DNA from: Caldilineaceae bacterium SB0664_bin_27
Lineage (GTDB): Bacteria; Chloroflexota; Anaerolineae; Caldilineales; Caldilineaceae
Direction of reading: 5' to 3'
DNA: 64,000 nt
NCBI GenBank assembly: GCA_009838625.1
Contig: VXRG01000039.1
Span: forward strand, 401 to 64,400
Shown: positions 23,401-48,999 of the stretch, piece after piece
How positions within the stretch are numbered: the first letter of the stretch is position 1
Layout of the letters: every line of letters starts with the position of its first letter
Notes under the pieces: model-generated
The model's input: the letters and a program-made list of their open reading frames with translations, nothing else
Databases searched by the model: none
Told to the model about the DNA's origin: nothing
Program-made: the position numbers and the translations under genes

Positions 23401-23556
23401 TTCCCAGCCAATCCGGGCAGGGATGGCAGCAACTGCCGCTATTGCGACTTTAAGAATCTCTGCCCCACCCGCCGTGAGTGGCACTGGCGGCGCAAACGCA
23501 ACGATCCACGCCTGTCCGCCTACGTAGCGATGGCCGACGAGGAGGCAAGCCGATGA
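20434..23556 (+). CDS. addB: AddB-like helicase-nuclease subunit (PD-(D/E)XK nuclease with iron-staple Cys cluster; no Walker A seen)
   Basis: C-terminal GKIDRIDL...LVLDYKTG nuclease motif. Cys ligands WATCPFRYF plus CRYCDFKNLC. Stop overlaps the addA start (ATGA at 23553-23556). Confidence 0.75.
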   Translation: MQQSPTHVVHLEQAQERLKRLLRDHQAEDRFAPATVVVPTPYAGLYLRRAFGRSGLVNVRFIPLARLAELLGAPSLADAGRSPLKPAIESAAVRRVAGEAEGELEPFRTHPSFHSSLRKTFRDLRPAAPDALSGLERLGGVSGETVRLYTRYRDRTRAYYDREALAEAAAEAVRTGRAGAALDSLGRVIAYLPRTLTPAEQRLFDALRDAQNCETILAATGDPEADTVLPKTAAQPPASSRPTPPQTQLLVASDTGEEVRNIVRSVAAAVHAGAPFHRIAILYWQREPYAALIAEQLTAAGIPIAGPSTETLAATPVGRMLTGIVDLAGGDLPREEVMRWLTSCPVKAASDRYSPSRWDAVSRDAGVVAGIEQWRDRLANFAKSRQRTAASQDEERSEGEENELAQSAAEAWALRSFVLRLHETLNRAGESLTWAALVNWSNELINHYLDEDSLPPVEQDNLDTLKTALQELAILDTVEESADLDAFRTALDEALNRAAARAGALGEGLFVGSVRLAAGMRFDKVYLVGMVEGLVPPQLSDDPLVPHSERERVGLPLRSTAVERYDYLAAAASGRTRVLTYARGNNIAQREQHPSRWFLEEATRLYGSSVYPTMLSNARDLARLREQPWFEEVVSAQHGINTVAASQPADIHDYDLHRLSQWRQLGNPIGAHHLASSEPVLSRALEMQQARIAAPLTLWDGDLSSASSAGGRTGPSNPEPFSPTRLQTWATCPFRYFLANELGIAAPEQPEELATISALEKGSLLHTILERFIRDTQQQSAIPAPDESWSEDQRRRLFQIAAEEFRNAEQGGVTGKPLLWELARNEMLSDLDRFLKEDAKLRKKHGVSPHAVESAFGLSDNEDHAALDAVDWSSDKTGALRFRGKIDRIDLSPSGDTALVLDYKTGGTSGYANMNRDPLQRGKLLQLPVYGLAAQQLLDDGVDVRVAYWFVTEKGKFATRPSNPKTLEEMLDAFSDVVGAITGGIGARLFPANPGRDGSNCRYCDFKNLCPTRREWHWRRKRNDPRLSAYVAMADEEASR

Positions 23557-26500
23557 GAGCTCTCTCCGACCAGCCGGCACGCGACGCAATTCTGGAACAC
23601 CTCGACGATAATATGGTCGTCGAAGCCGGCGCGGGCACCGGTAAAACACGCAGCCTCGTCGATCGCGTCGTCGCCCTCATCAAGTCCGGACGGGCAAACC
23701 TGGGCGGGATCGCCGCCATCACCTTCACCGAGTTGGCCGCGGCTGAGCTGCGCGCCCGCATCACAGAGAACCTTGAACTGGCCGCCGACAACCCAGGCCT
23801 GCCCCAGGACCAGCGGGAGCGCTGCCAGCGCGCCGTGGCAGAACTCGACCAGGCCTCCATTCAGACGCTGCACAGCTTCGCCGGCAGTCTCCTGGGCGAG
23901 CGTCCGCTGGCAGCAGGCCTGCCGCCGGGCTTCACCATCCGCGACGAGATCGAGGCCGAGATCGCATTCGAAAACCGCTGGGCAGCATGGCTGGACGCAG
24001 CCCTCGACGACCCCGAGGCGCAGCAGGCCCTCCGCCCCGCCCTGGCCGCAGATATGACCCTTGACCACATGCGCAAGATCGCGGACAGTTTTCACAATAA
24101 CTACGACCTGCTCGCCGCTGCCTCATTCGCAGCGCCTTCATCCCGGCAGTCTGAAGACGAGCAGCCGCCGGAACTGCTCCCGGTGCTCGAACTGCTGCGC
24201 AGCTTTACGCTCGATTACGCCCGCGAACGGAGGGACGCCGGCCAGGTCGAGTTCCTCGACATGCTCGTCCTCGCACGCGATCTTCTCCGGGACAGTCTCG
24301 CTGCACGCGACCACTTTCGCGCTCGTTTCACCCACATCCTTATCGATGAAATGCAGGATACCGACCCGCTGCAGGCGGAAATCGCCCTGTTCCTGGCCGA
24401 AGAGGCCTCCGATCGCACAAACCCCGACGACCGTCCCAGGGACTGGCGCAAGGTGCAGCCCGCTGCCGGTAAACTCTTCATCGTCGGCGACCCCAAACAG
24501 TCGATCTACCGTTTCCGCCGCGCCGACATTCAACAGGTCGAACTGATGCGACAGGCGGTCGGCGGAGAAAACGTCCTGCTCCAACAGAACTTCCGCTCGC
24601 TTTCCCCTGTCATCGACTGGGTCAACCACATCTTCAGCCAGTGGATGCAAGGCCAGGCGCAAGCCGTCTATGCGCCCCTCGTCACCGGCGCGCAGGACGG
24701 CCGCCCGCCCCCCGTCCGCATCATGGGCGGCGAAGTCGAAGGGCTCATAGGCGTCGTACGCCGCCAGGAAGCCGAAGCCATCGCCAATGGCGTCCGGACG
24801 GCCATGGAGGAGGGCTGGCAGGTCCGTTCGGAGGAAGAAGAAGGCGTCCTGCGCCCTGCCGTCTACCAGGACATCTGCGTTTTGATGCCGCGCCGCGCCG
24901 GCTTTGACGCCCTGGAGATCGCATTCGAAGAAGCGGGCATCCCCTTCCGGCTCGAAAGCGCCTCCCTCATCTACAACACGCAGGAGGCGCGCGACCTGCT
25001 CAACTGCCTCGCCGCCATTGACGATCCGACCAACCCCGTAGCGGTCGCAGCCGCGCTGCGCTCCCCCGCCCTCGCCTGCTCCGATGCCGACCTGCTGACG
25101 TTTGTCGAAAAGGGCGGCCGGTTCGACTACCTCGCCCAGGACTGTCCCCCGTCCGGTTGCGTCGCCGACGCACTGGCCGTCCTGAGAAAGTTCCACGAAT
25201 GCCGCAAATGGACCGCCCCGGCGACGCTCATCGAGCAGTTTGTGCGTACGTGCCGGCTCCGCGAACTGGCCCTCAACGAACGCTATTCGCGCGGTCGATG
25301 GACGCGTTACGGCTTTCTGATAGACCGCGCTCGCGCCTTCGCCGCCACAGGAGAAGCCTCCCTGCGCGCATTCCTCGCCTGGACCGAACGCCAGCGCGAA
25401 GAACGCGTACGTGCGCGTGAGACCGTCGTCCGTGAGTCCGATGCCGGCGCAGTCAGCGTAATGACAATCCACGGCGCCAAGGGGTTGGAATTCCCCATCG
25501 TCTTCCTTGCCGGGTTGAACGCGACAAGAGGCCCCAATCCCGATCCCGTGCTTTTCGATCGGAAGAGCGGTCGGATCGAAGCAAAAGCCTCTCTCCAAAC
25601 GGCCGGATATCAAGAGCTGGCCGACTTCGAAAAGGAGCGCGCGGAAGAGGAGCACGTGCGGCTGGTCTACGTCGCCGCGACCCGCGCCCGAGATCACCTC
25701 GTCGTCAGCCTCTACCACAAAGCAGGGAGCAAGAAATCTGCGGCCGCCCACATCGATTCGTTCATGCAGGGCGCAGATCATCTCTGGCAGCGATTCGATC
25801 CCCCGGCAGTCCCCGCACCGTCCGTTCCGGTTTCCCCCGGTGAAGCAGCGGCCGACGATGATACCCCCACCGCGCGCGAACGCTGGCAGCAGCAGAGGCG
25901 CGAGCTCTATGCAGCCCGCAGCCTGCCCATCTCCGCGGCCGCCACCCGTCTCGCCCGGTATGAGCAGGACGAGAAGGAGGAACAGGACGTCCCCGACGAA
26001 CCCTGGCGCCGCGGTCGCGCCGGGACCAATTTCGGTCGCGCCGTTCACGCCGTGTTGCAGGTTGTCGATCTGCACAAGGGTAGCGACCTCGAGAAAAACG
26101 TGCAGGCGCAAGCCGCGGCCGAGGGTGTGCCTGAGCGAGCGGATGAGATCGGACGCCTCGTACAACGCGCGCTCGACAGCTCCCTCGTGCAGCGCGCGCT
26201 GGCATCGAAGCGCTGGTGGCGGGAGGCGCCTGTGGCCGGCCCTGTCGGCGACGGCATCGTCGAAGGGTTCATTGACCTCCTCTTTGAGGAGGAGGACGGC
26301 TTCGTGATCGTGGACTTCAAGACCGACGCCGTCGGCTCCGAAGAAGAGGTCGAACAGGTGATGGCGCGCTACCGTCTGCAGGGCGGGGCCTACGCGCTCG
26401 CTCTGAGCAAAGCCGCCGGAGTCAAAGTGAAGGAGGTCTCGTTTCTTTTCCTCGAACCGAATCTTCAGAAATCCGTTGACAACCTCCCGCAGGCGCAGGA

Positions 26501-26558
26501 GGAAGCCGAGAGGGCGGCGCTGGCCTTCCTTACAAGTCCGCCATCAGCAACGCACTAG
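23553..26558 (+). CDS. addA: AddA/UvrD-type ATP-dependent helicase-nuclease subunit
   Basis: Walker A EAGAGTGKT, DEMQDT, FIVGDPKQSIYRFRRAD, TIHGAKGLEFP, YVAATRARDHL. C-terminal RecB-type nuclease GFIDLLFEE..IVDFKTD. Confidence 0.85.
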   Translation: MRALSDQPARDAILEHLDDNMVVEAGAGTGKTRSLVDRVVALIKSGRANLGGIAAITFTELAAAELRARITENLELAADNPGLPQDQRERCQRAVAELDQASIQTLHSFAGSLLGERPLAAGLPPGFTIRDEIEAEIAFENRWAAWLDAALDDPEAQQALRPALAADMTLDHMRKIADSFHNNYDLLAAASFAAPSSRQSEDEQPPELLPVLELLRSFTLDYARERRDAGQVEFLDMLVLARDLLRDSLAARDHFRARFTHILIDEMQDTDPLQAEIALFLAEEASDRTNPDDRPRDWRKVQPAAGKLFIVGDPKQSIYRFRRADIQQVELMRQAVGGENVLLQQNFRSLSPVIDWVNHIFSQWMQGQAQAVYAPLVTGAQDGRPPPVRIMGGEVEGLIGVVRRQEAEAIANGVRTAMEEGWQVRSEEEEGVLRPAVYQDICVLMPRRAGFDALEIAFEEAGIPFRLESASLIYNTQEARDLLNCLAAIDDPTNPVAVAAALRSPALACSDADLLTFVEKGGRFDYLAQDCPPSGCVADALAVLRKFHECRKWTAPATLIEQFVRTCRLRELALNERYSRGRWTRYGFLIDRARAFAATGEASLRAFLAWTERQREERVRARETVVRESDAGAVSVMTIHGAKGLEFPIVFLAGLNATRGPNPDPVLFDRKSGRIEAKASLQTAGYQELADFEKERAEEEHVRLVYVAATRARDHLVVSLYHKAGSKKSAAAHIDSFMQGADHLWQRFDPPAVPAPSVPVSPGEAAADDDTPTARERWQQQRRELYAARSLPISAAATRLARYEQDEKEEQDVPDEPWRRGRAGTNFGRAVHAVLQVVDLHKGSDLEKNVQAQAAAEGVPERADEIGRLVQRALDSSLVQRALASKRWWREAPVAGPVGDGIVEGFIDLLFEEEDGFVIVDFKTDAVGSEEEVEQVMARYRLQGGAYALALSKAAGVKVKEVSFLFLEPNLQKSVDNLPQAQEEAERAALAFLTSPPSATH

Positions 26559-26662: not shown

Positions 26663-27289
26663 CTAATTTGCGTCCAGGATCTCCGCGACGGGCAGAGCAA
26701 GTTCCGGCAAAAGGGGAGATTTAACAATATCGCCGCGACCGAAGAGATCGCCTTCGGAGTAGACGTAGCCGGATAGGGACAGCACCGTGACTGTTTCCTG
26801 TTCAGGATCCACAATCCAGTACTCCTGGATGCCCACCCGTTCATATTCGAACCGTTTTGTCACCAGGTCCCGCTCGCGGTCTTCAAGGCCCCGGCTGACG
26901 ATTTCGATTGCCAAGTCGGCCCCATCCCAGAAGTTCTCTTGACGCAGGACGTTGTTGCGATCGAGCAAAAAGACGACATCCGGTTGCCGGTACTTCTGCT
27001 CCCACAAGCGTAACAGTAAACCACCCGGCCGGACCGCACCTCCAATTTGCCGAGCAATACTACTGAGAGCGAAGCACAGGAACATCATGATTCCCTGGTG
27101 CCTGTCGGTTGGCGCATCATGCACCTCTACAAAGCCATTGTCGAATTCGACGCGGCGGTTTGTCTCCAGCGCCAGATATTCCTGTTCACTCCATTCACCT
27201 TGATTTGGAAAGATGGTTGCGATTCGCCAAACCGGCGCTTCAGTTTCTGGACGACGCATTTGTGTATGGTTCCGCTGTCTGCGGTCCAT
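26663..27289 (-). CDS. Uma2-family (DUF820) restriction-endonuclease-like protein
   Basis: EYLALE...VEFDNGFVE, PDVVFL, ADLAIEIVS, K...YERVGIQEYWIVDP. The exact start is uncertain. Confidence 0.75.
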   Translation of the reverse strand: MDRRQRNHTQMRRPETEAPVWRIATIFPNQGEWSEQEYLALETNRRVEFDNGFVEVHDAPTDRHQGIMMFLCFALSSIARQIGGAVRPGGLLLRLWEQKYRQPDVVFLLDRNNVLRQENFWDGADLAIEIVSRGLEDRERDLVTKRFEYERVGIQEYWIVDPEQETVTVLSLSGYVYSEGDLFGRGDIVKSPLLPELALPVAEILDAN

Positions 27290-36092: not shown

Positions 36093-37556
36093 ATGAATTT
36101 GCAAGCCGGACTTTTGCGCCGTACCAGGCAAGTGAATGACGCAGGTAGAGAAAAGAGTGGGTTGCGCCTGAGTCCCCTCACCTTCCTGATCGTCCTCCTT
36201 CTAGTTGTCGCAGGATGTACGACCGATGCCGACGGCAATATCGTCGCCCCCGTCGTTGCCCCTGCGCCCGCCGGCGACTCGCAGCCCAACATGCATCGAG
36301 GTGTCCCTGTCGGCTTTACCGAAGAGGGATACCCCTTCCGCGGCGATCCGAACGCGCCTATCACCATCTATGAATACAGCGACTACGAATGCCCTTTCTG
36401 CGCCCGTCACGTGATCCAGACCGAACCGGCCCTCCTGGCCGCATTTGGCGAGAGCGGCGCCGTGAAATTCGTCTTCCGCGATATGCCCCTCTCCTCGATT
36501 CATTCCAACGCTCTTGCCGCGGCCATCGCCGCCAACTGTATGGCGGAACAGGATATCGTCCTCTTCTGGCAGATGCACGACAGGATCTTCCGGACTCAGA
36601 AAGAATGGGCGCCCCGCGAAGAGGCCCTGTCCTTCTTTGCCGAACTGGCCCAGGAGTTGGGCGCCAACACCACCCAATACGGGTCCTGCATGGCAAATAA
36701 CGAGACCCAGCTGGCAAAGGTGAACGAAAGCCTGGCTGAAGCCCAGTCCTTCGGCTTTACCGGCACGCCCAGTTTCCGCTTCGTGCGTGAAGAGACCGGC
36801 GACGCTTTTTCCCTTTCCGGGGCTCAGCCATACGATACCTTCGACAACTGGATCGGGACGATCGCGGCCGGCCGTACGCCCCAGGGCGCGGCTCAGGCGC
36901 AGCAGCAACAACAACAGCAACAGCAGGGAGACGGCGGATTGCCCTTCTGGGCTACGGCGGAGGGCTTGAAGCCCGACCCGGACCGACCCGGCTTCACTTT
37001 GGCCGGTGACATCTACAAGGGCAGTAGCGACGCCCCGATTGTTGTCGTTGAATTCAGCGACTTCCAATGCCCTTACTGCAGCCGCCACGCCCTGACAACG
37101 CAGCCGGTTCTGGATGAAGAGTTTGTCGCCCGCGGTGAGGTTATGTGGGTATTCAAGCACTTCCCCATCGAGAATATCCATCCCCATGCCTTTTCCGCTT
37201 CGGTCGCGTCCGAGTGCGCGGCCGAACAGGAAGCCTTCTGGCAGTTCCATCATCGCCTCTTCGTCGATATGGATCAGTGGTCTCGCTCCGACAACACCAT
37301 CTACTTCATGGAGTTGGCGGCTGAATACGAGTTGGACACCGACGCCTTTTCAACCTGCCTGGCAGAGGACGCGCCCGCGCAGGCAGTGCAGAGCGATATG
37401 CGAGACGGGGCACCCTTTGTCCGCGGTACCCCCACCTTCGTCGTTCTTGTCGGCGGCGAGGGGCGGCTGATCCCCGGCGCGCTGCCTACAGATCAGTTCA
37501 TGGCCGCACTCTCACAGATGCTCGCCGAGCTTGCCACCACGAACAACGACGGTTAG
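36093..37556 (+). CDS. lipoprotein with two tandem DsbA/thioredoxin-like domains joined by a poly-Gln linker
   Basis: AAGGAGG RBS and lipobox VVAGC. There are two CxxC sites, each in the same context (YSDYECPFCARH and FSDFQCPYCSRH). A Q9 run separates the domains. Confidence 0.8.
   Translation: MNLQAGLLRRTRQVNDAGREKSGLRLSPLTFLIVLLLVVAGCTTDADGNIVAPVVAPAPAGDSQPNMHRGVPVGFTEEGYPFRGDPNAPITIYEYSDYECPFCARHVIQTEPALLAAFGESGAVKFVFRDMPLSSIHSNALAAAIAANCMAEQDIVLFWQMHDRIFRTQKEWAPREEALSFFAELAQELGANTTQYGSCMANNETQLAKVNESLAEAQSFGFTGTPSFRFVREETGDAFSLSGAQPYDTFDNWIGTIAAGRTPQGAAQAQQQQQQQQQGDGGLPFWATAEGLKPDPDRPGFTLAGDIYKGSSDAPIVVVEFSDFQCPYCSRHALTTQPVLDEEFVARGEVMWVFKHFPIENIHPHAFSASVASECAAEQEAFWQFHHRLFVDMDQWSRSDNTIYFMELAAEYELDTDAFSTCLAEDAPAQAVQSDMRDGAPFVRGTPTFVVLVGGEGRLIPGALPTDQFMAALSQMLAELATTNNDG
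36900..36926 (+). repeat. (CAG/CAA)9 trinucleotide tract encoding Gln9
   Basis: cagcagcaacaacaacagcaacagcag read in frame within the DsbA-like gene. Confidence 0.9.
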
Positions 37557-38142
37557 CCGTTTTCTCATCCCTGTCCCCCATTCATCGCCTCCGTTATCGA
37601 CGAATCCCCAGCCCCTGGTGTTCCGTGCCAAGGGCTTTGCAAATGCCTGATTCGTGACGGCGCCTCCAACGCGCAGCTTCAGCGAAGATCACAACTTCAA
37701 ACGAGATCCACAGGCGTAACGTCCGTTGCGGGCGGGTGGGTGTTCACTCCCAATACTGACTGACCGGGTCTGTATTTCATTGGCGGATCGTAGGCAAATC
37801 GCCCAAAAGCAGTGCGCTGGATTCTCGTCGTTAATTATCGCATTTCAGCACTTGCCTGCTGCCCGAAACTCTGAGAAATCTCTGAAGTCAAGAACCCAAA
37901 AGACGCCCGCGGGCCCGGCCTCTCCGCTCACAATTCCAGTGTAACCACCAGTCAACTCTCTCCGAAACGCGCAGCCTGTCCAGGGACGTCTGGCCCTCTG
38001 CCAGGCACCCGGAGTCCAGGCCCCGAAACGGGCCCAGGACTTGGGCCTGCCTCTTTTAATGCCAATCTGCGCTGTGATACAATTTTTAACAGAAAGAAAA
38101 GGAGTCGATGCGCGCGCATTTCGCTCACTGCAAGTCTATGCC

Positions 38143-38172
38143 GCCGAACGCCGCGGGAACAGGGCGTTCGGC
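38143..38172 (+). promoter_or_regulatory. perfect 10-bp stem-loop in the leader of the vWA gene
   Basis: gccgaacgcc (38143-38152) / 10-nt loop / ggcgttcggc (38163-38172). It is flanked by two copies of cgatgcgcgcg (38106-38116 and 38228-38238) and lies downstream of an extended -10-like TGATACAAT (38075-38083). Confidence 0.4.
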
Positions 38173-38183
38173 GCGTTTGACCT

Positions 38184-41100
38184 GTGGGGGACTGTATCTC
38201 TGCCAGCAAAGCAGGGGAACGCGGAGCCGATGCGCGCGTTTGCTTCTCTCTTGGAACTGGTAGAGCCAGCAGTCCGTTGATCAGTTGTTTGCCGCCGTGC
38301 AATAGCCACAGGTGTCAGGAGCGTCATCTGCCCGGTAACGTTTACCAGAAGTCTCTGCTCATCCGCCGCCTCCCACAGGGCTGGGACCGGAGGCCTTGGG
38401 CCGTGTTTGTCTGTCTGCTAAGTGGGTTTCTCTTCCTGTTGATCACGGGCCATGGCGCCGCGCCTGCACACGCCGGGACCCGACCTGCGCTGCCGCGGCA
38501 GTCCACGTCCGGGGCCGCCCCCATCGACGTAATCGTCATCCTCGATGACTCCGGCAGCATGGCCACCTGCTGGCCTTGGCCGCAGGGCCAACCTCCCTCC
38601 GGGCCCCCATGCGATGACGCTACTCTTAACGCCCCCAGCGACCCCAACGAACTGCGCTACAGCGCGGCCCGCCTGCTGGTCCATCTCGCCGACAGCGCCG
38701 ACCGCATCGCCGTGCTGCGTTTCGACAGTACCGCCGAGGGCGTCGGCTCGATGAGCCTGTTGCAGGAGGTCGGCAGCGCTGAAAACCGCAGCCGGCTGGC
38801 TGCGTCGCTCCAGTCTCCCGAGGACTATGCCCTGCGCGGCTACACGCGCATGGATTTGGGACTGAAGGAGGCGCTGCAGCTGCTCGAACTTCACGGCGAC
38901 CCTAATCGCAGCCAGTATGTGCTGCTGCTGACCGACGGGGAGCCAACAGCGCCGTTACAGGTCACCGGTCAGCGACAGACCATCACCAATCTACTGGCTC
39001 AGATCGGGGACGCCGGCGCACTGCTCTACCCCGTGATCCTCTGCAATCCCGATGCGGGCTGCGCCGGCGATTTTCTCAAAACCAGCTCTTCGCTCGCGCG
39101 CGAGGCCAAGAGCTCGCAGGACCTCCTGCTCATCTTTAGCGAACTATTCGCCGAAATGAAGTCGGACCGCTCGGTCGTCACCCACCGCAATGTGCACGGG
39201 AACCTGACCGTCTCAATCCGCAAAGCGCATGGCGCCGGCAGCATTGCCTTCGTCAGCCCGCAATCCGCGATCACCGCCGTAGAGCGGGACGGCGCGCCGA
39301 TGCTGACTCAGAGCCTGCTCGCCGACGGCAACATCGACCTAAACGTGGCTGTCGCGCCGCTGGCTGCCGGCGAATGGGTGGCAAAGACGACCGACCTGAG
39401 CAGCTTTGCCGTCGTCCAGGCCGACAGCTATCCTGAGCTCCTTTTCCCGCCTCCCAGCGTACTGGGCAACGCCGCCTCAGCGCGCTACTACCCTGCCGGC
39501 AAGTCGCCTATCATCGTCGTTGCCGGCGCCGGCCCCGCCGTGGACGAGCCGCTGATGCTCAACGGCAATCTGCCCATCGCACTCCTGGGTCAGGACCCGA
39601 TTAGCGGTCGAACGGTCGCCGTCCAGCAGCTTTCCGGCGGCGTGGAAGAGGTTACAGTTCAGTTGGGAGAGGACCGAGAGCCGTTACAGCTGCGGCGCAC
39701 CTTCCGGCTCCAGACCTCGGAGGAGCTGCCCCAAGCACAGGTCTTCTCCCCCTCAGCCAGCAATCCTGGAATCCTGCAAGACGGCAGCCTGCAACTACAG
39801 ATCGGTTTTGGCCCCGGCAGTCAGTTGGATGATCTCCAGGCCGCTGTCTACGTTACCGACCTCGACGGCGGCGAAATCGTCTACCGGAGGCGGATCAGCT
39901 GTGGTGAACATGTCTGCTCCGACGACGGCTTTATGCCGCAGGACGGGCGTGACTACGAAGCGCTCTTCCTGGTGACGGCGGCCATCGATGGAGTCCGTTT
40001 CGGAGACTATGCGCGCACGCTCTTGGAAGTAGAACCGGCGATCTACGTGAAGGGACTGCCGGCCGATATCGATCTGGCCAAGATGCCGCCCGAAGGATGG
40101 CCGCTCACGATCCAGGCCAGTACGGTTGAAGAGATTGGAACGCTGGAGGCGTCGCTGGTCCTGCGCCGGTCCGATACAAGCGAAATCATGCGCGAGGCCT
40201 CTGTAAGTCTTTCCGTAGAGGTGCCCGAAAACGGTATCCAGACGGCGCTTCTGCACGTGGACGGCCTCGACCTGCTGCGCCCGGGCCAGTACGAGGGCCA
40301 ATTGAATCTGTCGGCTCTCAGCCCGGCCGGACTGCCTATGGAGGTACAGGTTCGTCCTGCCCCATCGCTGGCTGTGCTCTTGGACATCCCCCGCTCCCAG
40401 GCACGCATCCAGGTGCAGGAGGCCGACTTCGGCGCGCTGCTCTACGATACATCACCGAATTACCGGCTGGATGAGCAGATCCTGCTGCCCGTCGCCTACA
40501 GCGGGGATACCCCCTTTCGGCTGACGGTTGAACTGGCCGAGAGTAGCTGCAGCGGCCTCACCGCCACTGCTGGTGACCTGCAACCCTTCGAAGCGACGGG
40601 CGACAGCGCGGCTAACTCCGCGGGCTCAGATGGTTTGCAGCCGGCGAACTGGGCGCTGCCGGTTCGCCTGCAAAGCGAAGGGACCATGTCCGCCGGCAAC
40701 TGCCACGGGCTCCTCAGTTTGGCCGGTCCCAGCCAGGACTTCGATGTCCTGTCCGCACACTCCTCCTCAGGCGCGGGTCCCTCCTCAGAGGCGACAGTGC
40801 CCTTCCGTCTCCAGATCCGCGATGTGGAGTGGGGTGTCGCCGGCGCGCTCGATTTTGGCGATCTGGGGCGGGCGGGCGAAAGAGCGACGGAAACGCTCTT
40901 TCTGCGCTTTAACGGAAAAACGCCTTTTGTGCTTGAAATCGTTGGGCTGACCGCATCGGGAGAGGCTGGCAGCGGCGTGATGAATTTGGATGAACTTTTC
41001 CTGGAAGCCCCGCCGGTCGAAGTCAACGGTTTGCCTGATGAAGAAGGCTTCTTCGAAGTCCCCGTCATCCTCATCGCCCGCAAAGACCTGCCCAAAGATG

Positions 41101-41858
41101 CTCTGCGCGGCTCCTTTTATAGTGGAGTGCTGCAGCTGAGCATTGTCGGCCTGGCCGGCGAGATGAGGTCTGTCGATATCAGTTTCCGCAGTCCAACCCT
41201 CTATCAGCGCTACGTTGAGTGGTGGTTGCGTCCGTTCTACACCTTCCCGCTGGTTTTCTGTAGCGGACCTGTGCTGCTCCTGGGGTTGCTCATCGTGGTG
41301 GCGCGTGCCCGCACTCGCGGGTACAATACGGATGACGACGAAGATCCGGGAGTGATTCTGCCTGGGCAGGATTCCCCTCTTGCGCCTGGGTACGCTGCCG
41401 CCCCCGGCAGTCCGGACGGCTGGCATCACGCTAGCGGGTCGGAAACCGCATTCGTCACGTCGAATGTGGCCGGGGGTTCGGCGTACGCGTCTTACCCACC
41501 GCCCGTCCCTGGACCGGAACCGGCGGCAGGTTCGCCAGGCAATTCCGCTGCTTTTGAGAATATCGCTGATACCTCTCCTGAGCGTTTTGCCGGTTCCGGC
41601 AGTTCGGACAGTTGGCAAGGCGCCGGTGAGGGAACGCAAAAGTCCGCTTGGGACACAGCCTGGGACCAGAGAGGCTGGGGGCCGGACCCTTACTCTTCCT
41701 CAGCGTCCGGGGACTACGGACGGACAGAACAGCCCGGCGACAACTCGAACTGGTCGTCTCCCTCTTCGGGCGATGGGGCGTTTAGCGACGAGCACAACAG
41801 TTCATCCGCCGGCGCGGGTTCGGCTGACCCATGGGGCAGCCCGCGCGACAGCTTCTAG
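38184..41858 (+). CDS. large type-I-like membrane protein: signal/anchor, vWA domain with MIDAS, about 700-aa beta-rich ectodomain, TM, disordered cytoplasmic tail
   Basis: MIDAS IVILDDSGSM plus LLLTDGEPT. Hydrophobic leader WAVFVCLLSGFLFLLITG...AHA. C-terminal TM LVFCSGPVLLLGLLIVVA followed by RARTRGY and a Ser/Gly/Pro/Asp/Trp-rich tail. The true start is uncertain (GTG at 38184; no in-frame ATG before the signal peptide). Confidence 0.75.
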   Translation: MGDCISASKAGERGADARVCFSLGTGRASSPLISCLPPCNSHRCQERHLPGNVYQKSLLIRRLPQGWDRRPWAVFVCLLSGFLFLLITGHGAAPAHAGTRPALPRQSTSGAAPIDVIVILDDSGSMATCWPWPQGQPPSGPPCDDATLNAPSDPNELRYSAARLLVHLADSADRIAVLRFDSTAEGVGSMSLLQEVGSAENRSRLAASLQSPEDYALRGYTRMDLGLKEALQLLELHGDPNRSQYVLLLTDGEPTAPLQVTGQRQTITNLLAQIGDAGALLYPVILCNPDAGCAGDFLKTSSSLAREAKSSQDLLLIFSELFAEMKSDRSVVTHRNVHGNLTVSIRKAHGAGSIAFVSPQSAITAVERDGAPMLTQSLLADGNIDLNVAVAPLAAGEWVAKTTDLSSFAVVQADSYPELLFPPPSVLGNAASARYYPAGKSPIIVVAGAGPAVDEPLMLNGNLPIALLGQDPISGRTVAVQQLSGGVEEVTVQLGEDREPLQLRRTFRLQTSEELPQAQVFSPSASNPGILQDGSLQLQIGFGPGSQLDDLQAAVYVTDLDGGEIVYRRRISCGEHVCSDDGFMPQDGRDYEALFLVTAAIDGVRFGDYARTLLEVEPAIYVKGLPADIDLAKMPPEGWPLTIQASTVEEIGTLEASLVLRRSDTSEIMREASVSLSVEVPENGIQTALLHVDGLDLLRPGQYEGQLNLSALSPAGLPMEVQVRPAPSLAVLLDIPRSQARIQVQEADFGALLYDTSPNYRLDEQILLPVAYSGDTPFRLTVELAESSCSGLTATAGDLQPFEATGDSAANSAGSDGLQPANWALPVRLQSEGTMSAGNCHGLLSLAGPSQDFDVLSAHSSSGAGPSSEATVPFRLQIRDVEWGVAGALDFGDLGRAGERATETLFLRFNGKTPFVLEIVGLTASGEAGSGVMNLDELFLEAPPVEVNGLPDEEGFFEVPVILIARKDLPKDALRGSFYSGVLQLSIVGLAGEMRSVDISFRSPTLYQRYVEWWLRPFYTFPLVFCSGPVLLLGLLIVVARARTRGYNTDDDEDPGVILPGQDSPLAPGYAAAPGSPDGWHHASGSETAFVTSNVAGGSAYASYPPPVPGPEPAAGSPGNSAAFENIADTSPERFAGSGSSDSWQGAGEGTQKSAWDTAWDQRGWGPDPYSSSASGDYGRTEQPGDNSNWSSPSSGDGAFSDEHNSSSAGAGSADPWGSPRDSF

Positions 41859-42011
41859 TCTCTGGTTTTTTTGCGCCGCTGCCGGAGCCTTTGGCCGACC
41901 TCAACTCTTCCGGCAGCTGGCGGCAACCAGATAGCTAGGCAAGCTGCGCAAACATGCACAGTAATGGAATAATAAATACGGGCTATAGAGAGTTCAAGAG
42001 AGAAGCCATAT

Positions 42012-44489
42012 ATGGAGCAGAACGGGGCGCCTTTTATTAGTGAAAAGCCAACAATCTATCCGACCCTCGTGGTCGGCGTAGGCGGTATGGGCACCAACGC
42101 TGTACGGGCCGTCAAACGGCGCCTGCGCAAAGCCTGGGGCGGCGAAACGCTGCCGGCGATGATTCAACTGCTGGCTCTGGATACGGAACCGCTGATCAAC
42201 CGGCTCGATCAGGAGCCCCTCTATGCCGATGAATCGGCCTACATGGGCAAATTTGACGCAACCCGCCTCGTCGATAACCTCGAAAACCATCCCGAAATCG
42301 CCCGCTGGTGGGACTACCCATCGATCCCTCTTGGCTATATCCATAACGGCGCCAAACAGCTGCGGCCCATCGGGCGGCTCTCCTTCTTCCGCAACTACGT
42401 CACCTTCAAGAGGCTGTTGGAGACGAAATACGCCGCCCTGGACAAGATCCGCGATCTGGAGATGGCGCAGAATCGCCGCTTTCCCGTGATGAGCAACTAT
42501 CAGCTCGTCTATGTCGTCAGCAGCCTCTGCGGCGGTACCGGCGCCGGCATGTTTATGGACGTGGCGCACCGAGTGCGCGCCCTCGTGCGCAGCAACGCTC
42601 GCGTCGTCGGCATCTTCTTCCTGCCCGACGTGCTAGAAGAAGAGATCAACAGCGACCTGCAGCGCCGCCGCATCAAAGCCAACGCCTACGCCGCGCTCAA
42701 AGAACTGAACTACTTCCAGGAAACGCAGCAGTTCCAGGAACTCTATCCCAGCGAACAGCGGGCACTGCCCGACACACCCTACGCACCGTTCGACTTTATC
42801 TTTCTGGTCGGGCGCACCAACCGCGACGGCCGCAGCCTGTCTCGTAAATCCGATGCTGAAAACCTGGCCGCTCATCTGATTCAACTCACAGCCATCAGCC
42901 ACCTGAGCAGCGAGATTCTCGGGCTGGAAGTAAACGTCGTGCGGGAACGCATGTCCGGTAGCGTCGCCGCCGCCGAGGTAGTTAACGACCGCCGCACCGG
43001 TCGGCCTCCGGCGAAGGGAAACTACCTGGTCTACAGCAGCTTTGCCGCTTCCGCGATCGTCGCGCCGGACGAGTCACTGGTCAACTTCTGGCAACAGGCA
43101 TTCCTGGCAGACTGCATGCGGCGCCTGGCCGCCGGGCCGGAGCTCAACGACCCGCGCCAGCCTATTTCACCGCAAACACGCCAGAAGGTTATCACCGCCT
43201 GGCAGGGACTCCTGGCCAGGATGCGCTCCCGCTATCTCTCGTTGGACAACGACCGGCTGGAGGAGATGGCCGAGGAGGTCGAGGAACAACGCGGCGCATG
43301 GCTCGGTTTCAAGACCGCGGTCGACGAAACTTTTCGCCAGGTGATCCTCGATACAGGACTGCGCGGCGCACTGGAGCTGGCCGACCTGCTGGCGCCGTTG
43401 AATCCTTCCACCGCGCCCAACGAATCGCTGATAAAGCAAAGACTTTTCCTGCTGAACAACCACCCGGTCATGGAAGAGGACCGCGCCCGTTGGCGCTCGT
43501 TGCTGGCCCAGCAAGGAGGCGCGGCGGAACAGATCGGCCAGATTGCCGGCGGACTGGGCGACCTCATGCTCGCGGCCTTCAACCCCCGCCAGGCCCGCGA
43601 TCGCGCCCGAGACATGCGCCAGCGCAAAGCCCGCTCCCGTCTTCACCAGCGCCGCGACATCCTGGAACGAATCCTCGTCGAGCGCCTCTTCGCATACGGA
43701 ACGCAGATGCGGGAGCTTTTCCGCTCACAGATAGACTATACCGGCAGCGCGCTGGGCCGGGCTAATCACGCGGCAAGGCGGGCCGCCGAACGCATCGACC
43801 CCCGCATCTCCGACGGCACCGCCAGCACCAACACGTACTATGAACTGGAGACCGGCGCCGTCGGGCGCGACTATCTGCAACACTTCTATCGCAACGCAGC
43901 CCAGGTCGTCTACCCCAGCGACTGGGAGGTCCTGCTCGGGCCCGTAATCGATCGCACCCTGAACTTCGGACGGGCGGTCAGCGGTGAGGAGCTCTTTGCG
44001 AACCTCACCAACGCAATCGCCACCGAAAGGGGGCTGCTGGGCAGGGTTCTGCAGTGCGTCGACATCCGTCACATTATCGGTGTCCAACATGGCGAAGAGA
44101 CCCAGCAGGCCCGGCCTCTGCCCAACAACCGCGTCCAGCAGTGGCTGGACCGTCTGAACCCCTACATCCGCTGGGATTCGGACCGCTTCAGCTTCCACGA
44201 CGGCAATCTGGAGCACATCCGCCTGGCGGCCACACCGTCAACGCGCGAAGATGATGCCCAGTTGGCGATGGCGATGGTCGGACAGGAGGACATGAAATGG
44301 ATACCCACCGGCGACACAGGACGCATGGACGCCGTCTGGATCGTCCACGGCCTGCCTGTGACGCTCATCGACCGCCTTGACGAGTTTCGGGCACAATATG
44401 AAAACAAACTCGATTTCCCCGCCCGCGAGGAGTTTCATCTCCATCCCGCCTGGGTCGACCTGCCCGAAATCACTGAAAACGATCTCTAG
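42012..44489 (+). CDS. tubulin/FtsZ-like GTPase (Pfam 'Tubulin-like' type) with a long alpha-helical C-terminal extension
   Basis: T1-loop-like TLVVGVGGMGTNAVRAV (compare FtsZ GVGGGGxNAV) and T4 signature-like VVSSLCGGTGAGMFMDVA (compare GGGTG(S/T)G). 825 aa. Confidence 0.75.
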   Translation: MEQNGAPFISEKPTIYPTLVVGVGGMGTNAVRAVKRRLRKAWGGETLPAMIQLLALDTEPLINRLDQEPLYADESAYMGKFDATRLVDNLENHPEIARWWDYPSIPLGYIHNGAKQLRPIGRLSFFRNYVTFKRLLETKYAALDKIRDLEMAQNRRFPVMSNYQLVYVVSSLCGGTGAGMFMDVAHRVRALVRSNARVVGIFFLPDVLEEEINSDLQRRRIKANAYAALKELNYFQETQQFQELYPSEQRALPDTPYAPFDFIFLVGRTNRDGRSLSRKSDAENLAAHLIQLTAISHLSSEILGLEVNVVRERMSGSVAAAEVVNDRRTGRPPAKGNYLVYSSFAASAIVAPDESLVNFWQQAFLADCMRRLAAGPELNDPRQPISPQTRQKVITAWQGLLARMRSRYLSLDNDRLEEMAEEVEEQRGAWLGFKTAVDETFRQVILDTGLRGALELADLLAPLNPSTAPNESLIKQRLFLLNNHPVMEEDRARWRSLLAQQGGAAEQIGQIAGGLGDLMLAAFNPRQARDRARDMRQRKARSRLHQRRDILERILVERLFAYGTQMRELFRSQIDYTGSALGRANHAARRAAERIDPRISDGTASTNTYYELETGAVGRDYLQHFYRNAAQVVYPSDWEVLLGPVIDRTLNFGRAVSGEELFANLTNAIATERGLLGRVLQCVDIRHIIGVQHGEETQQARPLPNNRVQQWLDRLNPYIRWDSDRFSFHDGNLEHIRLAATPSTREDDAQLAMAMVGQEDMKWIPTGDTGRMDAVWIVHGLPVTLIDRLDEFRAQYENKLDFPAREEFHLHPAWVDLPEITENDL

Positions 44490-44563
44490 CACTGTATTGA
44501 CAACCATTCCTGCCGTAGATCGGTGGACCTGTACCGACCCCGGCAATCTGTTATAAAATAAGT

Positions 44564-44597
44564 CACTTGGCGCCGAACGCAACCCGGCAGCCAAGTG
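44564..44597 (+). promoter_or_regulatory. 8-bp perfect stem-loop between the two tubulin-like genes
   Basis: cacttggc (44564-44571) / 18-nt loop / gccaagtg (44590-44597), 27 nt upstream of the ATG at 44624. Confidence 0.35.
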
Positions 44598-44623
44598 CTG
44601 GAAACCGAAATCTAGAAACTACC

Positions 44624-47600
44624 ATGATTCCCGGCGCAACCCGCAGCCGAGCTGCAATACTATGTCTTGGTGGATGGGGTCTGCAGACGATGCTCCATTT
44701 GGCGCCGCGTCTGCACTCCGCCCAGGAACAGCGAAACGCTACCGGCGCCGACGGACCCGATCTGACGCGCATCACCCGCTTTGCCGCCCTCCTGCCGTCC
44801 GATCAACTCAATCATCAGGACGAAATTTCTCTCAATCTGTTCACCCTGCGTGATAACCGTCTCCCGCCCTTCTATCTCGAACGGCTGCTCACCGAACTTA
44901 TGCGGTCGCCGCCCCCTGCCGTCCCTGAACTGCCGCAAACCACCAACCACTGGCGGCGGGCAACGAGCCAGCGGCGGGCAAGCCTGTTGCTCGCGTCGGC
45001 CGCAGACACGCTGCACCCGCTCCAATGGCAAGACGCAACATCTTCCCCGTATCCACCTGGGTCGGTGGGAGACTCGCCCACAGCCGCAAAGCCTTCTCGC
45101 AGAGGTCTGCCCTGGCCATTCCGCAGATCGAACAAGGATGCTGACACCGGCGGTGTTCCCGGCAGCGCAGAGAGCCCTCCCGCATCGCCCACAGCCCCGC
45201 CCGATACGCCAACGCGGCGGCATGCATTTCGTGCCGCGATTAACGAAGGCGGCAGCATCGCCCATCTTGTCGCCTCCAATATCATCGATCCCATCCGCGC
45301 CGACACCCTTGTTCCCGGCGATCCCTTCGTACAGACGACTCTGTATGTGATTGCACCCCTCTATGAACCGCTGACGTCGGCACTGATCTGGCCAACGATC
45401 GCGCACCAGCTCAACTATCTGGGCCAGCGTCACATCGCCCAGGTCGTCGGCATCTTCGCCGCCGGCAGCTACGCCACCGACACCAATCGCACTATCGAGG
45501 ACGCCTCCTGTTACGCGGCGCTGGCTGAATTGGAAGCGTTCACCGGCCTGCGTCGCGCCAACCTCAAACAGGTCATCTCTTCCATCCGGAAAGGCTCCAA
45601 GGCACGGGGCACACTGCCAGATGAGTGGCTGGGACGACCGCTCTTCGACCGCATCTATCTGGTAGATCGGGAAAAGAGCAATCAAGGCCTGGCCCGCAAC
45701 AGCTACGAACTCTCCGTCCTCGTTGGCAACACCCTTCAGGCGCTCATCGCCGCCGATGGAGCCGCCTACATCGATGAACAGGTCGGTATTGATCTGCGCA
45801 ACGCCAGCGAACGGCCCTACAGCCTGCTCGGTGCAGCCGCCGATCATGTGCCGCTGGACTATATCTTCCGGGCCGCGCAGCAGCACGAGGGCAAGCGGCT
45901 CGTACGCGAGCAGGTCCTGCTCCAGCCTGGAAGCGCAGACGGTTCAACCGCCGCCGGTTCACCCTCGACCGGGACTGCCACCCACTTGGAGCCACTGGCC
46001 TCGCTGCAGCAATTGGGCGCAACCTCGCATCAAGCACTGAACCGGCTCATCGGGCAGATGCCCGACCTGTTCAATGAGCTGAATCCCGAAACGATCCAGG
46101 ATCTTGCAGTCCATTCGGGATATGTGCTGCCGTCGGCGACTGCGCGCAAGCTGCGCGGTCTCAATCCGGTCCGCTGGCAGGCCGCCTTCGACAATCAGTT
46201 CCAGAGTGTGATGGCCCAGTCTGACGAGGACTTCGGCGCCGGCGCTCTGGATACGGCTTGGGGACTGGCCGCCCTGGACGAAGACGGTATACCTGTTGAC
46301 CCCACCGACAAACGCTTCCTGCCGGCCGTTGAGCAGCAGATGCGCGCCCACCTGCTCTCACTGATTGGCTCCGAGCCGTCAGGACTCCTGCACGCGCGAC
46401 GCCAACTCCACCAGTGGCTGTTTGAATTGGAGCAGGAACGACTCTGGCCGTCGTTGGCAACAGGGGACGCCGCCGCCTTTACTCCTGCTGATGCAAACCG
46501 GGTTGAACGACAATTGGAGCTGCGCGACTGGCGCAACCGCTATCGACGCACGCTCGCCGATAAACCTTCTCTGTTCGGATCATTGACGCGGGTGCTCGGT
46601 CTGCTGAGTGGTATCGTTCTGCTGACACTTCTCTATCTGTTCAGCTCCGGGTTGGTCGGCAGTGCGGACGATATCGTCACCGTGCAAAACGATCCCTCCG
46701 TACTTACCCAGCTGATGACCGGCGCGTCTCTGGACGCAGTCGTCGATTTCATCGGCAACGAAGCCAACGCCGCCACATTCATCGGGCTGATGATCGGCGC
46801 CTTTCTCGGCGCGATCACCTCCTATCGGAGGAGGGCGCAGCGCGTGCAGAAGCTGCGGCGCGAGCGGGTCAATCTGGCCTGTTCTGAACTGACCGCCCGT
46901 CTGCAGGACAGCGTTTGGCGGGGAATGGGCCGCGTCCACGATCGTCTGGAACAAATGCTGAACCAGATGGACAATGTTCTCGAACAGACCTGCCGATCTT
47001 TGCAGGACTGGTCTGTCAGCGAAAAGATGCCGCCCCTCCCGCCGGAGGATGCGATCACCTCCCATCTGTACCGGCCCCATCTCAGCCAGAATATGTGGGA
47101 ACGCTGCCTGGCCTTCATGCGCGGCCGCCAGGATGTTGATGCCGGCATCCAGGCGGCTGGACCTCCCCATTCCGCCGCGAGTGGCAACAGGGGAGGGGAA
47201 GGGCGCCTGCGCGTCATCTGGACAGCGCCCCAACGTCTCGAACGGCTAGCTGCGCAGTTCACCGGCCAGGAAGTGTCGTCCCGCCCTCTTACGGATATTC
47301 TGGCTTCTTATGTTCGCGAGTGCGCTCAGGCTGCCGTCGGCGAAAGCCAGACATCCCTCCCCGAGCAGGAGCCGGGCGGTGGCAGGGCCGCGCTCGACAG
47401 CGAAACCGAAATGGCGCACAAGGCCTTCGTACGCTCGCTCGCACAGGAGTACAATCTGGAGCACCTGCTCTGGCGCGACACGACCTCGGCAGAAGGTTTT
47501 GCCTCTCTCTATCCGGATGGGGAGTTCACGCCGATCTCTACCGCCACCCTGCGCTATCTGGAGACTATGTGGAATGCCGCAAAGCCCTCCGCCAACTACG

Positions 47601-47920
47601 ACGTATCGGACCGGCTTGCAGCACATGGGCTGCCAGTGGAGTTCGCAGCGGTCTCCGGCGCCCCCGACAGCGACCTGACCGAAGACGTCTTGCAAAGCCT
47701 GCGCATCCCCCGTCTGTTGACCGGCAATCCTTTTCAGATCGCCTTCGTACGCACGCTGCACGGTCTGGAGCTAAGAGATCTGGGAAGCATGACTCGCTAT
47801 CTGACCGAATTGGGCCGGATGGACAGCGCCTCACGCCAGCAGATCCTGCTCACGGACGCCATCCACGCCGAGATGTATAACCAGCAAGACCCGCGCAGCT
47901 CCCGCTCCGCCTGGTCATAG
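44624..47920 (+). CDS. degenerate tubulin-like paralog with low-complexity insert and two TM helices
   Basis: Collinear with the preceding protein. Matched blocks (this protein vs the preceding one): AAILCLGGWGLQT vs LVVGVGGMGTNA; VVGIFAAGS...CYAALAELEAF vs VVGIFFLPD...AYAALKELNYF; LFDRIYLVDRE vs PFDFIFLVGRT. The T4 motif is replaced by APLYEPLTSAL. TM helices are LGLLSGIVLLTLLYLF and FIGLMIGAFLGAI. Start preferred at ATG 44624. Confidence 0.7.
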   Translation: MIPGATRSRAAILCLGGWGLQTMLHLAPRLHSAQEQRNATGADGPDLTRITRFAALLPSDQLNHQDEISLNLFTLRDNRLPPFYLERLLTELMRSPPPAVPELPQTTNHWRRATSQRRASLLLASAADTLHPLQWQDATSSPYPPGSVGDSPTAAKPSRRGLPWPFRRSNKDADTGGVPGSAESPPASPTAPPDTPTRRHAFRAAINEGGSIAHLVASNIIDPIRADTLVPGDPFVQTTLYVIAPLYEPLTSALIWPTIAHQLNYLGQRHIAQVVGIFAAGSYATDTNRTIEDASCYAALAELEAFTGLRRANLKQVISSIRKGSKARGTLPDEWLGRPLFDRIYLVDREKSNQGLARNSYELSVLVGNTLQALIAADGAAYIDEQVGIDLRNASERPYSLLGAAADHVPLDYIFRAAQQHEGKRLVREQVLLQPGSADGSTAAGSPSTGTATHLEPLASLQQLGATSHQALNRLIGQMPDLFNELNPETIQDLAVHSGYVLPSATARKLRGLNPVRWQAAFDNQFQSVMAQSDEDFGAGALDTAWGLAALDEDGIPVDPTDKRFLPAVEQQMRAHLLSLIGSEPSGLLHARRQLHQWLFELEQERLWPSLATGDAAAFTPADANRVERQLELRDWRNRYRRTLADKPSLFGSLTRVLGLLSGIVLLTLLYLFSSGLVGSADDIVTVQNDPSVLTQLMTGASLDAVVDFIGNEANAATFIGLMIGAFLGAITSYRRRAQRVQKLRRERVNLACSELTARLQDSVWRGMGRVHDRLEQMLNQMDNVLEQTCRSLQDWSVSEKMPPLPPEDAITSHLYRPHLSQNMWERCLAFMRGRQDVDAGIQAAGPPHSAASGNRGGEGRLRVIWTAPQRLERLAAQFTGQEVSSRPLTDILASYVRECAQAAVGESQTSLPEQEPGGGRAALDSETEMAHKAFVRSLAQEYNLEHLLWRDTTSAEGFASLYPDGEFTPISTATLRYLETMWNAAKPSANYDVSDRLAAHGLPVEFAAVSGAPDSDLTEDVLQSLRIPRLLTGNPFQIAFVRTLHGLELRDLGSMTRYLTELGRMDSASRQQILLTDAIHAEMYNQQDPRSSRSAWS

Positions 47921-48009
47921 GCGTTAAAACGCCGCGCGTAGCTTACTAAGAGCTCTTCTGAGTTGAGTACAGAGTTCGAAAACGAAATAACCGGGGTGAC
48001 TGCAGTTGG

Positions 48010-48999
48010 CTAATCCGCTACTGCTTCGCCGTACGCTCGCGCCGTGTCTGCCCTTTCCTCGTCGGACTCCCCTGGACGCGCCGGCGGGATGCCCTCAATG
48101 CCATCGGCAGCCAGCACCGGGATCAGGGCGGCAATCGCACATTCGACCATCGAATCATCCGGCGCGCGGGTAGTTATGCGCTGGAGCAGCAGTCCCGGCG
48201 CAATCAGCAGCCGCATCAGCGGGTTTTCGGCGTGATTGGCACTGAAACGGATAATCTCATAGGAGATCGCGGCAACCAGTGGGACCAGCAGAAGACGGGT
48301 GACAAAACGCAAAAGCAGCGCCAGCCAGGGGTACTCAATCCAGGCAAATGTGAGAGGGGCGAATAGAAGTATGCTGATAACAAGCACGTACAGTAGGAAG
48401 CTGGTCCCGCAACGTACATGCTGCACACTGTACTTCTGTACATTTTCTATCGTAAGTCTCGCGCCGGCCTCGTAGGCGTTGATCGCCTTGTGCTCTGCGC
48501 CGTGATATGCAAACACGCGTCGGATATCAGGCAAAAGGCTGATTGCCCACAGATAGACGACAAACAGAATCAGGCGGATACCGCCTTCGGCCACGGCGTC
48601 GAGATAGGGGTTGTGTTCAAAGAAGCCGGCAAACCAGCGGCTGGCCAGGGTGGGTACAAGGAAGAAAATCGCCACCGCAAAGGCAAGACTCGTCGCGATC
48701 GTCGTCCACGCCACCGGGCCGGAAAACTCGACCTGCTCCTCGGCATCATCCTCCTGCATCGCTACGTCCGCGCTCCACATCAGCGCCCGCATCCCCAGCC
48801 CAAGCGCATCCCACAGCAGGGCCAGCCCTCGTACGAACGGCCACTGCCCCCACTTGCGCGTATAGATCCTGGCCGTGAGGGGTTCCTCGTGGATGACGAT
48901 CGTACCCTGTGCGTTTCGCACGGCAATCGACATTGCCTTGCGGCCCCGCATCATCACGCCTTCAATTACAGCCTGACCGCCGTAGTATTGCTTGCTCAC
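48010..48999 (-). CDS. DUF1385 domain-containing membrane protein (YqhQ-like)
   Basis: N-terminus [14 protein letters not shown] is the DUF1385 hallmark, and HGAEHK is also present. GTG start. Confidence 0.8.

Follow-up and report, generated by a model that had tools for sequence, protein, structure and literature searches.

A predicted split tubulin core in an FtsZl1/Tubulin_2-family GTPase, and its co-inherited partner genes, in a Caldilineaceae bacterium

The window analyzed here is a stretch of 64,000 nucleotides (nt) of contig VXRG01000039.1 (assembly GCA_009838625.1, the sponge-associated Caldilineaceae bacterium SB0664_bin_27), and all positions are those of the window unless a contig is named. 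It carries a cassette of three genes on the forward strand, in the middle of which lies P0001, the gene of an 825-amino-acid (aa) GTPase of the FtsZ-like 1 (FtsZl1) or Tubulin_2 family. The gene upstream encodes a membrane protein with a vWA (von Willebrand factor type A) domain, and the gene downstream a second tubulin-like protein in which the T4 loop is replaced. The open reading frame (ORF) of 42012-44489 is present as described in a first-pass annotation made from the letters of the sequence. The features of the cassette are as follows:

38184-41858, forward strand: gene for a single-pass membrane protein with an extracytoplasmic vWA domain (matches to the Pfam models VWA_2 and VWA under the cut-off)
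42012-44489, forward strand: FtsZl1/Tubulin_2-family GTPase gene P0001 (825 aa, ATG start, from the ORF list)
42057-43133, forward strand: N-terminal GTPase domain, helices at the H7 and H8 positions, and S7 and H9 of the second core domain (residues 16-374)
42075-42095, forward strand: T1 loop GVGGMGT, G22-V-G24-G25-M-G27-T28 (from the 65-sequence family alignment)
42531-42548, forward strand: T4 signature GGTGAG, G174-G175-T176-G177-A178-G179 (same alignment; a sub-threshold PF00091 match is centered here)
42933-42947, forward strand: candidate T7-loop equivalent N308-V-V-R-E312, after the H7-like helix of the model
43134-44111, forward strand: predicted all-helical insert, placed between H9 and S8 of the second core domain (residues ~375-700, AlphaFold2)
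44112-44486, forward strand: predicted rest of the second core domain and H11-like C-terminal helices (residues ~701-825)
44624-47920, forward strand, start likely: FtsZl1 paralogue gene with the same predicted split core (hhalign, AlphaFold2)

The Pfam model Tubulin_2 (PF13809) matches residues 19-367 of P0001 with 205.3 bits (E 2.1e-60; cut-off 27) and spans profile positions 1-353 of 356, whereas the Tubulin/FtsZ model PF00091 reaches 21.6 bits, under its cut-off of 33, and the profile search found no match to FtsZ_C (PF12327). This is the Pfam outcome that had been predicted from the sequence, and the combination that defines a canonical FtsZ, PF00091 above threshold together with FtsZ_C, is absent from P0001. 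PF13809 is the Pfam model of the FtsZl1 family of Makarova and Koonin 2010 (PMC2875224), which they described by a tubulin-like domain at the N-terminus that carries T1 and T4, an extended stretch of coiled coil or helices with a helical C-terminus, a neighboring vWA-domain gene and a normal FtsZ in the same genome (PMC2875224). All four features are found at this locus, and P0001 almost certainly belongs to the family. A single canonical FtsZ, carrying FtsZ_C, is encoded in the genome, on another contig (C147), and there are exactly two Tubulin_2-like genes, P0001 and its downstream neighbor. P0001 is thus a further member of a known and uncharacterized family and holds nothing surprising for that family. 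Its relatives are many: HMMER recovered 4567 clusters with E<=1e-3 at a clustering level of 50% identity, 1678 of them with E<=1e-10. Neither NCBIfam nor PADLOC has a model for the family. Sequence searches of the PDB with P0001 and with a 65-sequence profile returned non-significant matches only (coiled-coil or apolipoprotein-like proteins in the insert, FtsZ at E ~1), and the link to the superfamily is visible only at the level of profiles (Pfam) and fold. A 2023 survey of the superfamily treated the Tubulin_2 proteins as a divergent, uncharacterized outgroup (PMC9871819), and the placement of P0001 follows the published trees (PMC2875224, PMC9871819) and near-tied structural Z-scores. This large branch was recognized from its sequences in 2010; what is new here is the split but complete tubulin core predicted below and the quantified co-inheritance with two partners.

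The two nucleotide-binding motifs had been recognized in the first-pass annotation, with both starts placed 6 nt too early: the T1 motif VVGVGGMGTNAVRAV occupies residues 20-34 (nt 42069-42113, the earlier start being 42063) and the T4 motif SSLCGGTGAGMFMDVA residues 170-185 (nt 42519-42566, the earlier start being 42513). The 65 aligned family sequences all share G24, G174, G175 and G177, and at least 90% of them keep G22, G25, G27, T176 and G179. No hydrophobic or transmembrane (TM) segment was predicted in P0001, which is therefore likely cytoplasmic, and its sequence characterizes it as a probable soluble GTP-binding protein of the FtsZl1/Tubulin_2 family. The gene is real and under strong purifying selection. 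The ratio of nonsynonymous to synonymous substitution rates (dN/dS) against same-genus orthologues is 0.03-0.16 overall, with 0.03-0.04 in residues 1-375, 0.07-0.16 in residues 376-705 and 0.03-0.08 in residues 706-825; the helical insert shows the highest values of the three regions, and the last 120 residues are nearly as constrained as the GTPase domain. As a separate observation, the orthologue consists of two overlapping frames or contains stops in four genomes (G064, G092, G054 and G103), which could be assembly frameshifts or real pseudogenes.

The AlphaFold2 model of P0001, built from the alignment of 65 family sequences, has a mean predicted local distance difference test score (pLDDT) of 90.9 and a predicted template modeling score (pTM) of 0.85, and its pLDDT falls below 50 only at residues 1-6 and at residues 317-334, a family-specific disordered loop. 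All significant Foldseek matches of this model in the PDB are chains of the tubulin/FtsZ superfamily. The matches were re-aligned with VIA-align, which reports ranges and no residue pairs. CetZ2 (4b45) gave a Z-score of 24.8 with 303 of 334 residues aligned to model residues 16-801; tubulins and BtubA/B gave Z 21-22 (~320-345 residues, model 15-824), FtsZ Z 21.5 (272-288 residues) and TubZ Z 21.4 (283 residues, model 14-801). The two-domain core that characterizes the superfamily, with a Rossmann-like GTPase domain, the core helix H7 and a C-terminal domain of four strands, is therefore recovered in the predicted model, at Z 21-25 over 270-345 aligned residues.

The order of secondary-structure elements in the model places S1-S6 and H1-H8 in residues 16-316, S7 at 340-350 and H9 at 353-374. 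The predicted insert follows, with a 69-residue helix (525-593) and a helical bundle, and behind it, in a conserved C-terminal module, come strands at 734-741, 762-765 and 771-782 and a helix at 749-754, which read as S8-H10-S9-S10 and, with an H11-like helix, occupy residues 734-796. With only seven strands in residues 1-374 and over 90% of CetZ covered by the alignment, the last three strands of the second core domain must be those at 734-782. The model thus indicates a complete, two-domain core in P0001 that ~330 aa of helical insert split. Because of this split, the second core domain would be invisible to inspection of the sequence. The first-pass annotation had reported more than 450 aa of helical sequence without an obvious FtsZ C-terminal domain, a description that holds by sequence profiles and fails in the model, where the C-terminal half of the core occupies residues ~340-374 and ~734-801, on either side of the helical insert. 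Likewise, the 2010 study found nothing alignable beyond H5 and no C-terminal similarity (PMC2875224), a statement which, judging from the model, is true for the sequence and not for the fold. With a hidden Markov model (HMM) of the C-terminal segment, this module was also detected in remote homologues from Chloroflexota (E 1e-10 to 1e-16), and these matches, together with the strong C-terminal constraint, agree with the split-core model. A search of the ESM Atlas with the helical insert returned other Tubulin_2 clusters only, with scores of 0.80-0.82 that are under the informative range.

The best structural matches are the CetZ proteins (PDB 4b45, 4b46 and 3zid), with Z 24.6-24.8, a root-mean-square deviation of ~4.0 Å and 298-303 of 330-342 residues aligned, covering both core domains and a C-terminal helix. 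CetZ are archaeal tubulin/FtsZ-like cell-shape proteins that differ from P0001 in lacking the ~330-aa insert and the vWA and T4-less partners, and the identity is 14-16%. Since in the model comparisons the lead of CetZ over tubulins, FtsZ and TubZ is no more than 2-3 Z units, a specific kinship of P0001 and CetZ appears unsupported. Canonical FtsZ resembles P0001 in the superfamily fold and in the glycine-rich T1 and T4 loops; unlike it, P0001 has a core that is predicted to be split and is not encoded among division and cell-wall (dcw) genes.

An equivalent of the T7 loop, which the first-pass annotation had proposed to seek in a structural model, has a candidate in N308. This residue follows the H7-like helix, is kept in 61 of the 65 family sequences, often with D or E at -2, and is followed at +4 by E312, present in 32 of the 65. 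With a probability of only 6%, hhalign against 29 Chloroflexota FtsZ sequences aligned residues 15-459 of P0001 co-linearly with FtsZ 14-327; in this low-probability alignment T1 stands opposite the FtsZ motif GVGGGGSN and N308 opposite the Asn of INLDFAD, the latter being a weak pointer only. N308 is likely the equivalent of the T7 Asn, and the catalytic residues are uncertain.

The downstream protein aligns with P0001 over the whole N-domain (hhalign probability 98.7%, E 1.9e-16). Its T1 is kept as GGWGLQ, while the T4 signature GGTGAG is changed to EPLTSAL, which is conserved in all orthologues, and two TM helices are predicted inside its helical insert. Its AlphaFold2 model (pLDDT 75) matches tubulins with VIA-align Z 18-20 (19.9 at the top) over residues 6-1087. 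The protein is therefore a true paralogue, without the phosphate-binding loop T4 and with a predicted hairpin of helices as its membrane anchor. C-terminal homology with P0001 was not significant by sequence (BLASTP E 2.2, hhalign E 0.43), with co-linear alignment, and it is the models that support a C-terminal domain common to both proteins. In a midpoint-rooted FastTree of Tubulin_2 N-domains most of the T4-less paralogues fall together on long branches, for which long-branch attraction is a likely cause. In four genomes of one genus (G071, G039, G048 and G046) the paralogue match contains one in-frame TAG, and in another genome (G091) a TGA, either within the coding part or just at its border.

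The upstream protein has an N-terminal hydrophobic segment, a large beta-rich ectodomain and a TM helix at ~1021-1039 followed by basic residues. The metal ion-dependent adhesion site (MIDAS; DxSxS, T, D) is invariant in 11 orthologues, and the disordered cytoplasmic tail bears two conserved Trp motifs, W..WG and, in most of them, a terminal DPWxSxW. A Pfam search of the ectodomain for FNIII gave no match, with a diverged repeat still possible. In 38075-38400 the ORF contains no in-frame ATG ahead of the signal-anchor segment, and the start of the gene is approximate.

The neighborhood comparisons cover Chloroflexota. At this locus, and likewise in 12 of 12 fetched genomes, the vWA gene lies adjacent to the FtsZl1 gene on its upstream side, and 11 of 12 genomes of other genera retain the order vWA, FtsZl1, T4-less paralogue. 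A true orthologue of P0001 was found in 72 of the 121 genomes of the order, and 71 of these 72 also have the paralogue; the sole genome without it is an assembly of 79% completeness in which the gene sits at the end of a contig. Four of the 121 genomes have distant Tubulin_2 matches only, and the paralogue was not found in them. The only fetched genome with a broken cassette (G017, locus L024, C1:3696000-3715900) has ~3.4 kb between the vWA and FtsZl1 genes and still holds the paralogue, which sits at C1:5636946-5640158, a distance of 1.9 Mb, and has a TGA close to its end. The three genes are thus strictly co-inherited. Three further lineages of Chloroflexota likewise have tandems in which an intact gene is followed by a T4-less one. 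Identity to the orthologues in fetched genomes is 64-87% for the GTPase, 42-58% for the vWA ectodomain and 34-59% for the paralogue. An apparent vWA-FtsZl1 fusion in a same-genus locus (L032, a 1958-aa frame) was rejected, since direct translation shows a stop codon between the genes through which tblastn had aligned.

The same arrangement is seen in the FtsZl1 example of Chloroflexus aggregans, Cagg_1316, where the vWA gene Cagg_1317 lies directly upstream as at P0001. A third gene, Cagg_1315 (1083 aa), occupies the position of the T4-less paralogue in the 2010 supplementary table (PMC2875224); it was labeled there only with the GrpE COG and was not recognized as a paralogue (PMC2875224). P0001 and the FtsZl1 family have in common the strong PF13809 match, a T1/T4 domain continuing into long helical sequence and the coexisting canonical FtsZ. 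Other FtsZl1 operons include genes for a protein kinase, a P-loop GTPase or OmpA, and the present cassette is without them. A minimal set of vWA receptor, presumably active GTPase and presumably dead, membrane-anchored paralogue offers a defined three-protein entry point to the family.

In four metatranscriptome runs (two studies), contigs assembled from relatives 90-95% identical cover the cassette; one spans 41069-48088 and another 40953-44964. In three RNA runs from two studies contigs begin at 38102-38105 and none covers 37600-37950, so a transcript 5' end may lie at 38102-38105, a weak hint of an operon transcript that starts ahead of the vWA gene. A promoter and terminator scan of the cassette found fewer sites than in shuffled controls and was uninformative. 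The spacer between the vWA and FtsZl1 genes (41865-42002) is replaced by 137 unrelated letters in related strains (two RNA runs) whose flanking genes are 90-95% identical.

The cassette is embedded in housekeeping genes: a tandem DsbA-like lipoprotein, a 3'-phosphoadenosine-5'-phosphosulfate reductase (CysH-like), CysN/C, DUF1385 and an LIV ABC transporter. Pfam found no dcw genes in these flanks, as the first-pass annotation had stated, and its view of P0001 as a non-division member of the tubulin/FtsZ superfamily is borne out by the separate FtsZ, the lack of dcw context and the exclusive matching of superfamily structures. The gene turned up in 23 of the 25 Caldilineaceae genera, mostly single-copy, and its inheritance within the family is vertical. 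It was not found in one well-sampled genus (0 of 18 genomes) and was found in 1 of 15 genomes of another. Tubulin_2 is present in 15 of 201 Chloroflexota genomes. The DNA was matched in sponge, coral-reef and marine metagenomes of ten studies.

We propose that the three proteins form a GTP-regulated membrane assembly that spans the envelope, a statement which, taken whole, we consider evenly poised between right and wrong. The vWA protein, P0001 and the paralogue would be one envelope-spanning module, in which the dead paralogue would tether the active GTPase to the membrane and pair with it through tubulin-type interfaces, like alpha/beta-tubulin or BtubA/B. The tail of the vWA protein would dock on this pair, and GTP binding and hydrolysis by P0001 would control assembly or oligomerization at the membrane, so that an extracellular binding event might be coupled to local organization of the membrane and envelope. 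The vWA-FtsZl1 operons were already predicted to remodel membranes in 2010 (PMC2875224), and the module proposed here makes that idea more specific. The comparison with alpha/beta-tubulin and BtubA/BtubB is based on adjacent, co-inherited tubulin-fold paralogues with unequal nucleotide chemistry. It differs in that both tubulin subunits bind GTP, whereas the paralogue here lacks T4 and is an integral membrane protein by prediction, and the heterodimer is one that we infer. The narrowest form of the proposal, an obligate heterodimer of P0001 and the membrane-inserted paralogue in which the cytoplasmic Trp-motif tail of an extracellular vWA/MIDAS receptor controls GTP-dependent assembly on the membrane's inner face, we hold as doubtful. 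If true, it would be a bacterial transmembrane coupling of the integrin-to-cytoskeleton type built on a split tubulin fold, and the heterodimer and receptor would give the FtsZl1 branch its first defined function and mechanism.

Several points weigh against the membrane assembly. The acidic residues of FtsZ and alpha-tubulin T7 loops activate GTP hydrolysis in the neighboring subunit, and the +2 and +5 acidic residues of the FtsZ T7 are not conserved in the family of P0001, where the acidic residue is at +4; the T7 assignment itself comes from a low-probability profile alignment and the order of secondary-structure elements. Heterodimer and tail docking were deduced from co-inheritance and topology, and any polymerization of P0001 is putative. 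The RNA contigs cannot exclude carry-over of DNA, and the literature searched held no experimental study of any FtsZl1 protein. Finally, related neighborhoods of tubulin and vWA genes have been read as conflict systems (PMC7159879).

The last point leads to the main rival of the membrane assembly, a role in biological conflict, which by analogy would make the cassette an immune module: the extracellular vWA domain or the tubulin-like pair would sense an invader, and GTP-dependent multimerization would be a thresholded effector. We regard this as improbable. The neighborhoods of Kaur, Burroughs, Iyer and Aravind 2020 combine one or two genes for tubulin-domain proteins that end in helical or coiled-coil C-terminal extensions with membrane proteins bearing an extracellular vWA domain, as at this locus, and are enriched in multicellular prokaryotes (PMC7159879). 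The patchy distribution of Tubulin_2 in the phylum and the faster divergence of the vWA ectodomain and the T4-less paralogue than of the GTPase also point this way. Caldilineaceae are filamentous, which may be compared with the multicellular enrichment of such systems. In contrast, the published GAP1-N2 systems come from Firmicutes and Actinobacteria (PMC7159879) and have a GAP1-N2 GTPase, an FNIII-repeat protein and HSP70, none of which is detectable by Pfam in the flanks here. Neither a GAP1-N2-type TRAFAC GTPase nor an FNIII-repeat protein was found by Pfam within ~15 kb on either side, and the Pfam search of the flanks likewise gave no P-loop GAP1-type GTPase, HSP70, effector gene, protein kinase or OmpA, the only GTPase domains nearby being those of CysN and MeaB. 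No mobile-element or defense genes were found in the flanks, the GC content of the gene (0.62) is the same as that of the flanks, and PADLOC-DB 2.0 returned 0 families for all three cassette proteins at E<=0.01. Purifying selection strong throughout and single-copy, vertical inheritance in stable housekeeping synteny argue further against a conflict role.

Another reading, which we judge unlikely, is that P0001 works as a GTP switch, as a monomer or in a fixed heterodimer with the T4-less paralogue, and regulates the vWA receptor in inside-out or outside-in signaling without a filament or any cytoskeletal polymer. To our knowledge all characterized proteins of the tubulin/FtsZ superfamily polymerize, and P0001 appears to retain, under strong constraint, both core domains that make the longitudinal contacts in known members, as well as the candidate T7 Asn, all of which speak against a switch. 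On the other hand, the T7 acidic residues are not conserved at the FtsZ/tubulin positions, a polymer interface could be taken up by the large helical insert of the second core domain, and a partner without a nucleotide signature would suit a pseudo-enzyme regulatory subunit. Makarova and Koonin themselves raised the possibility that FtsZl1 does not form filaments (PMC2875224).

That P0001 is an accessory or alternative division protein, acting with FtsZ or replacing it at the septum of filamentous cells, is very improbable: the fold is in common with FtsZ and division-protein paralogy is common in the phylum (several Chloroflexota genomes have two or three FtsZ_C-type copies), but the genome has a canonical FtsZ, the gene has no dcw neighbor, the protein has neither FtsZ_C nor PF00091 above threshold, and the gene was not found, one genome apart, in the two genera named above, nor in 186 of the 201 phylum genomes, which rules it out as a core division factor.

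The gene of the DsbA-like tandem-thioredoxin lipoprotein (36093-37556, forward strand; NCBIfam Rcas_1661 family, 263 bits) lies just upstream of the vWA gene, and 8 of 12 genomes of other genera show it in synteny with the cassette. Its product could serve in oxidative folding of the Cys-containing vWA ectodomain, which has a conserved ATCWPWP motif, a link that is positional only. Farther away, ~15 kb upstream and unlinked to the cassette, are a gene for a putative endonuclease of the Uma2 family (26663-27289, reverse strand) and one for a UvrD/PD-(D/E)XK (AddA-like) helicase-nuclease (23478-26558, forward strand).

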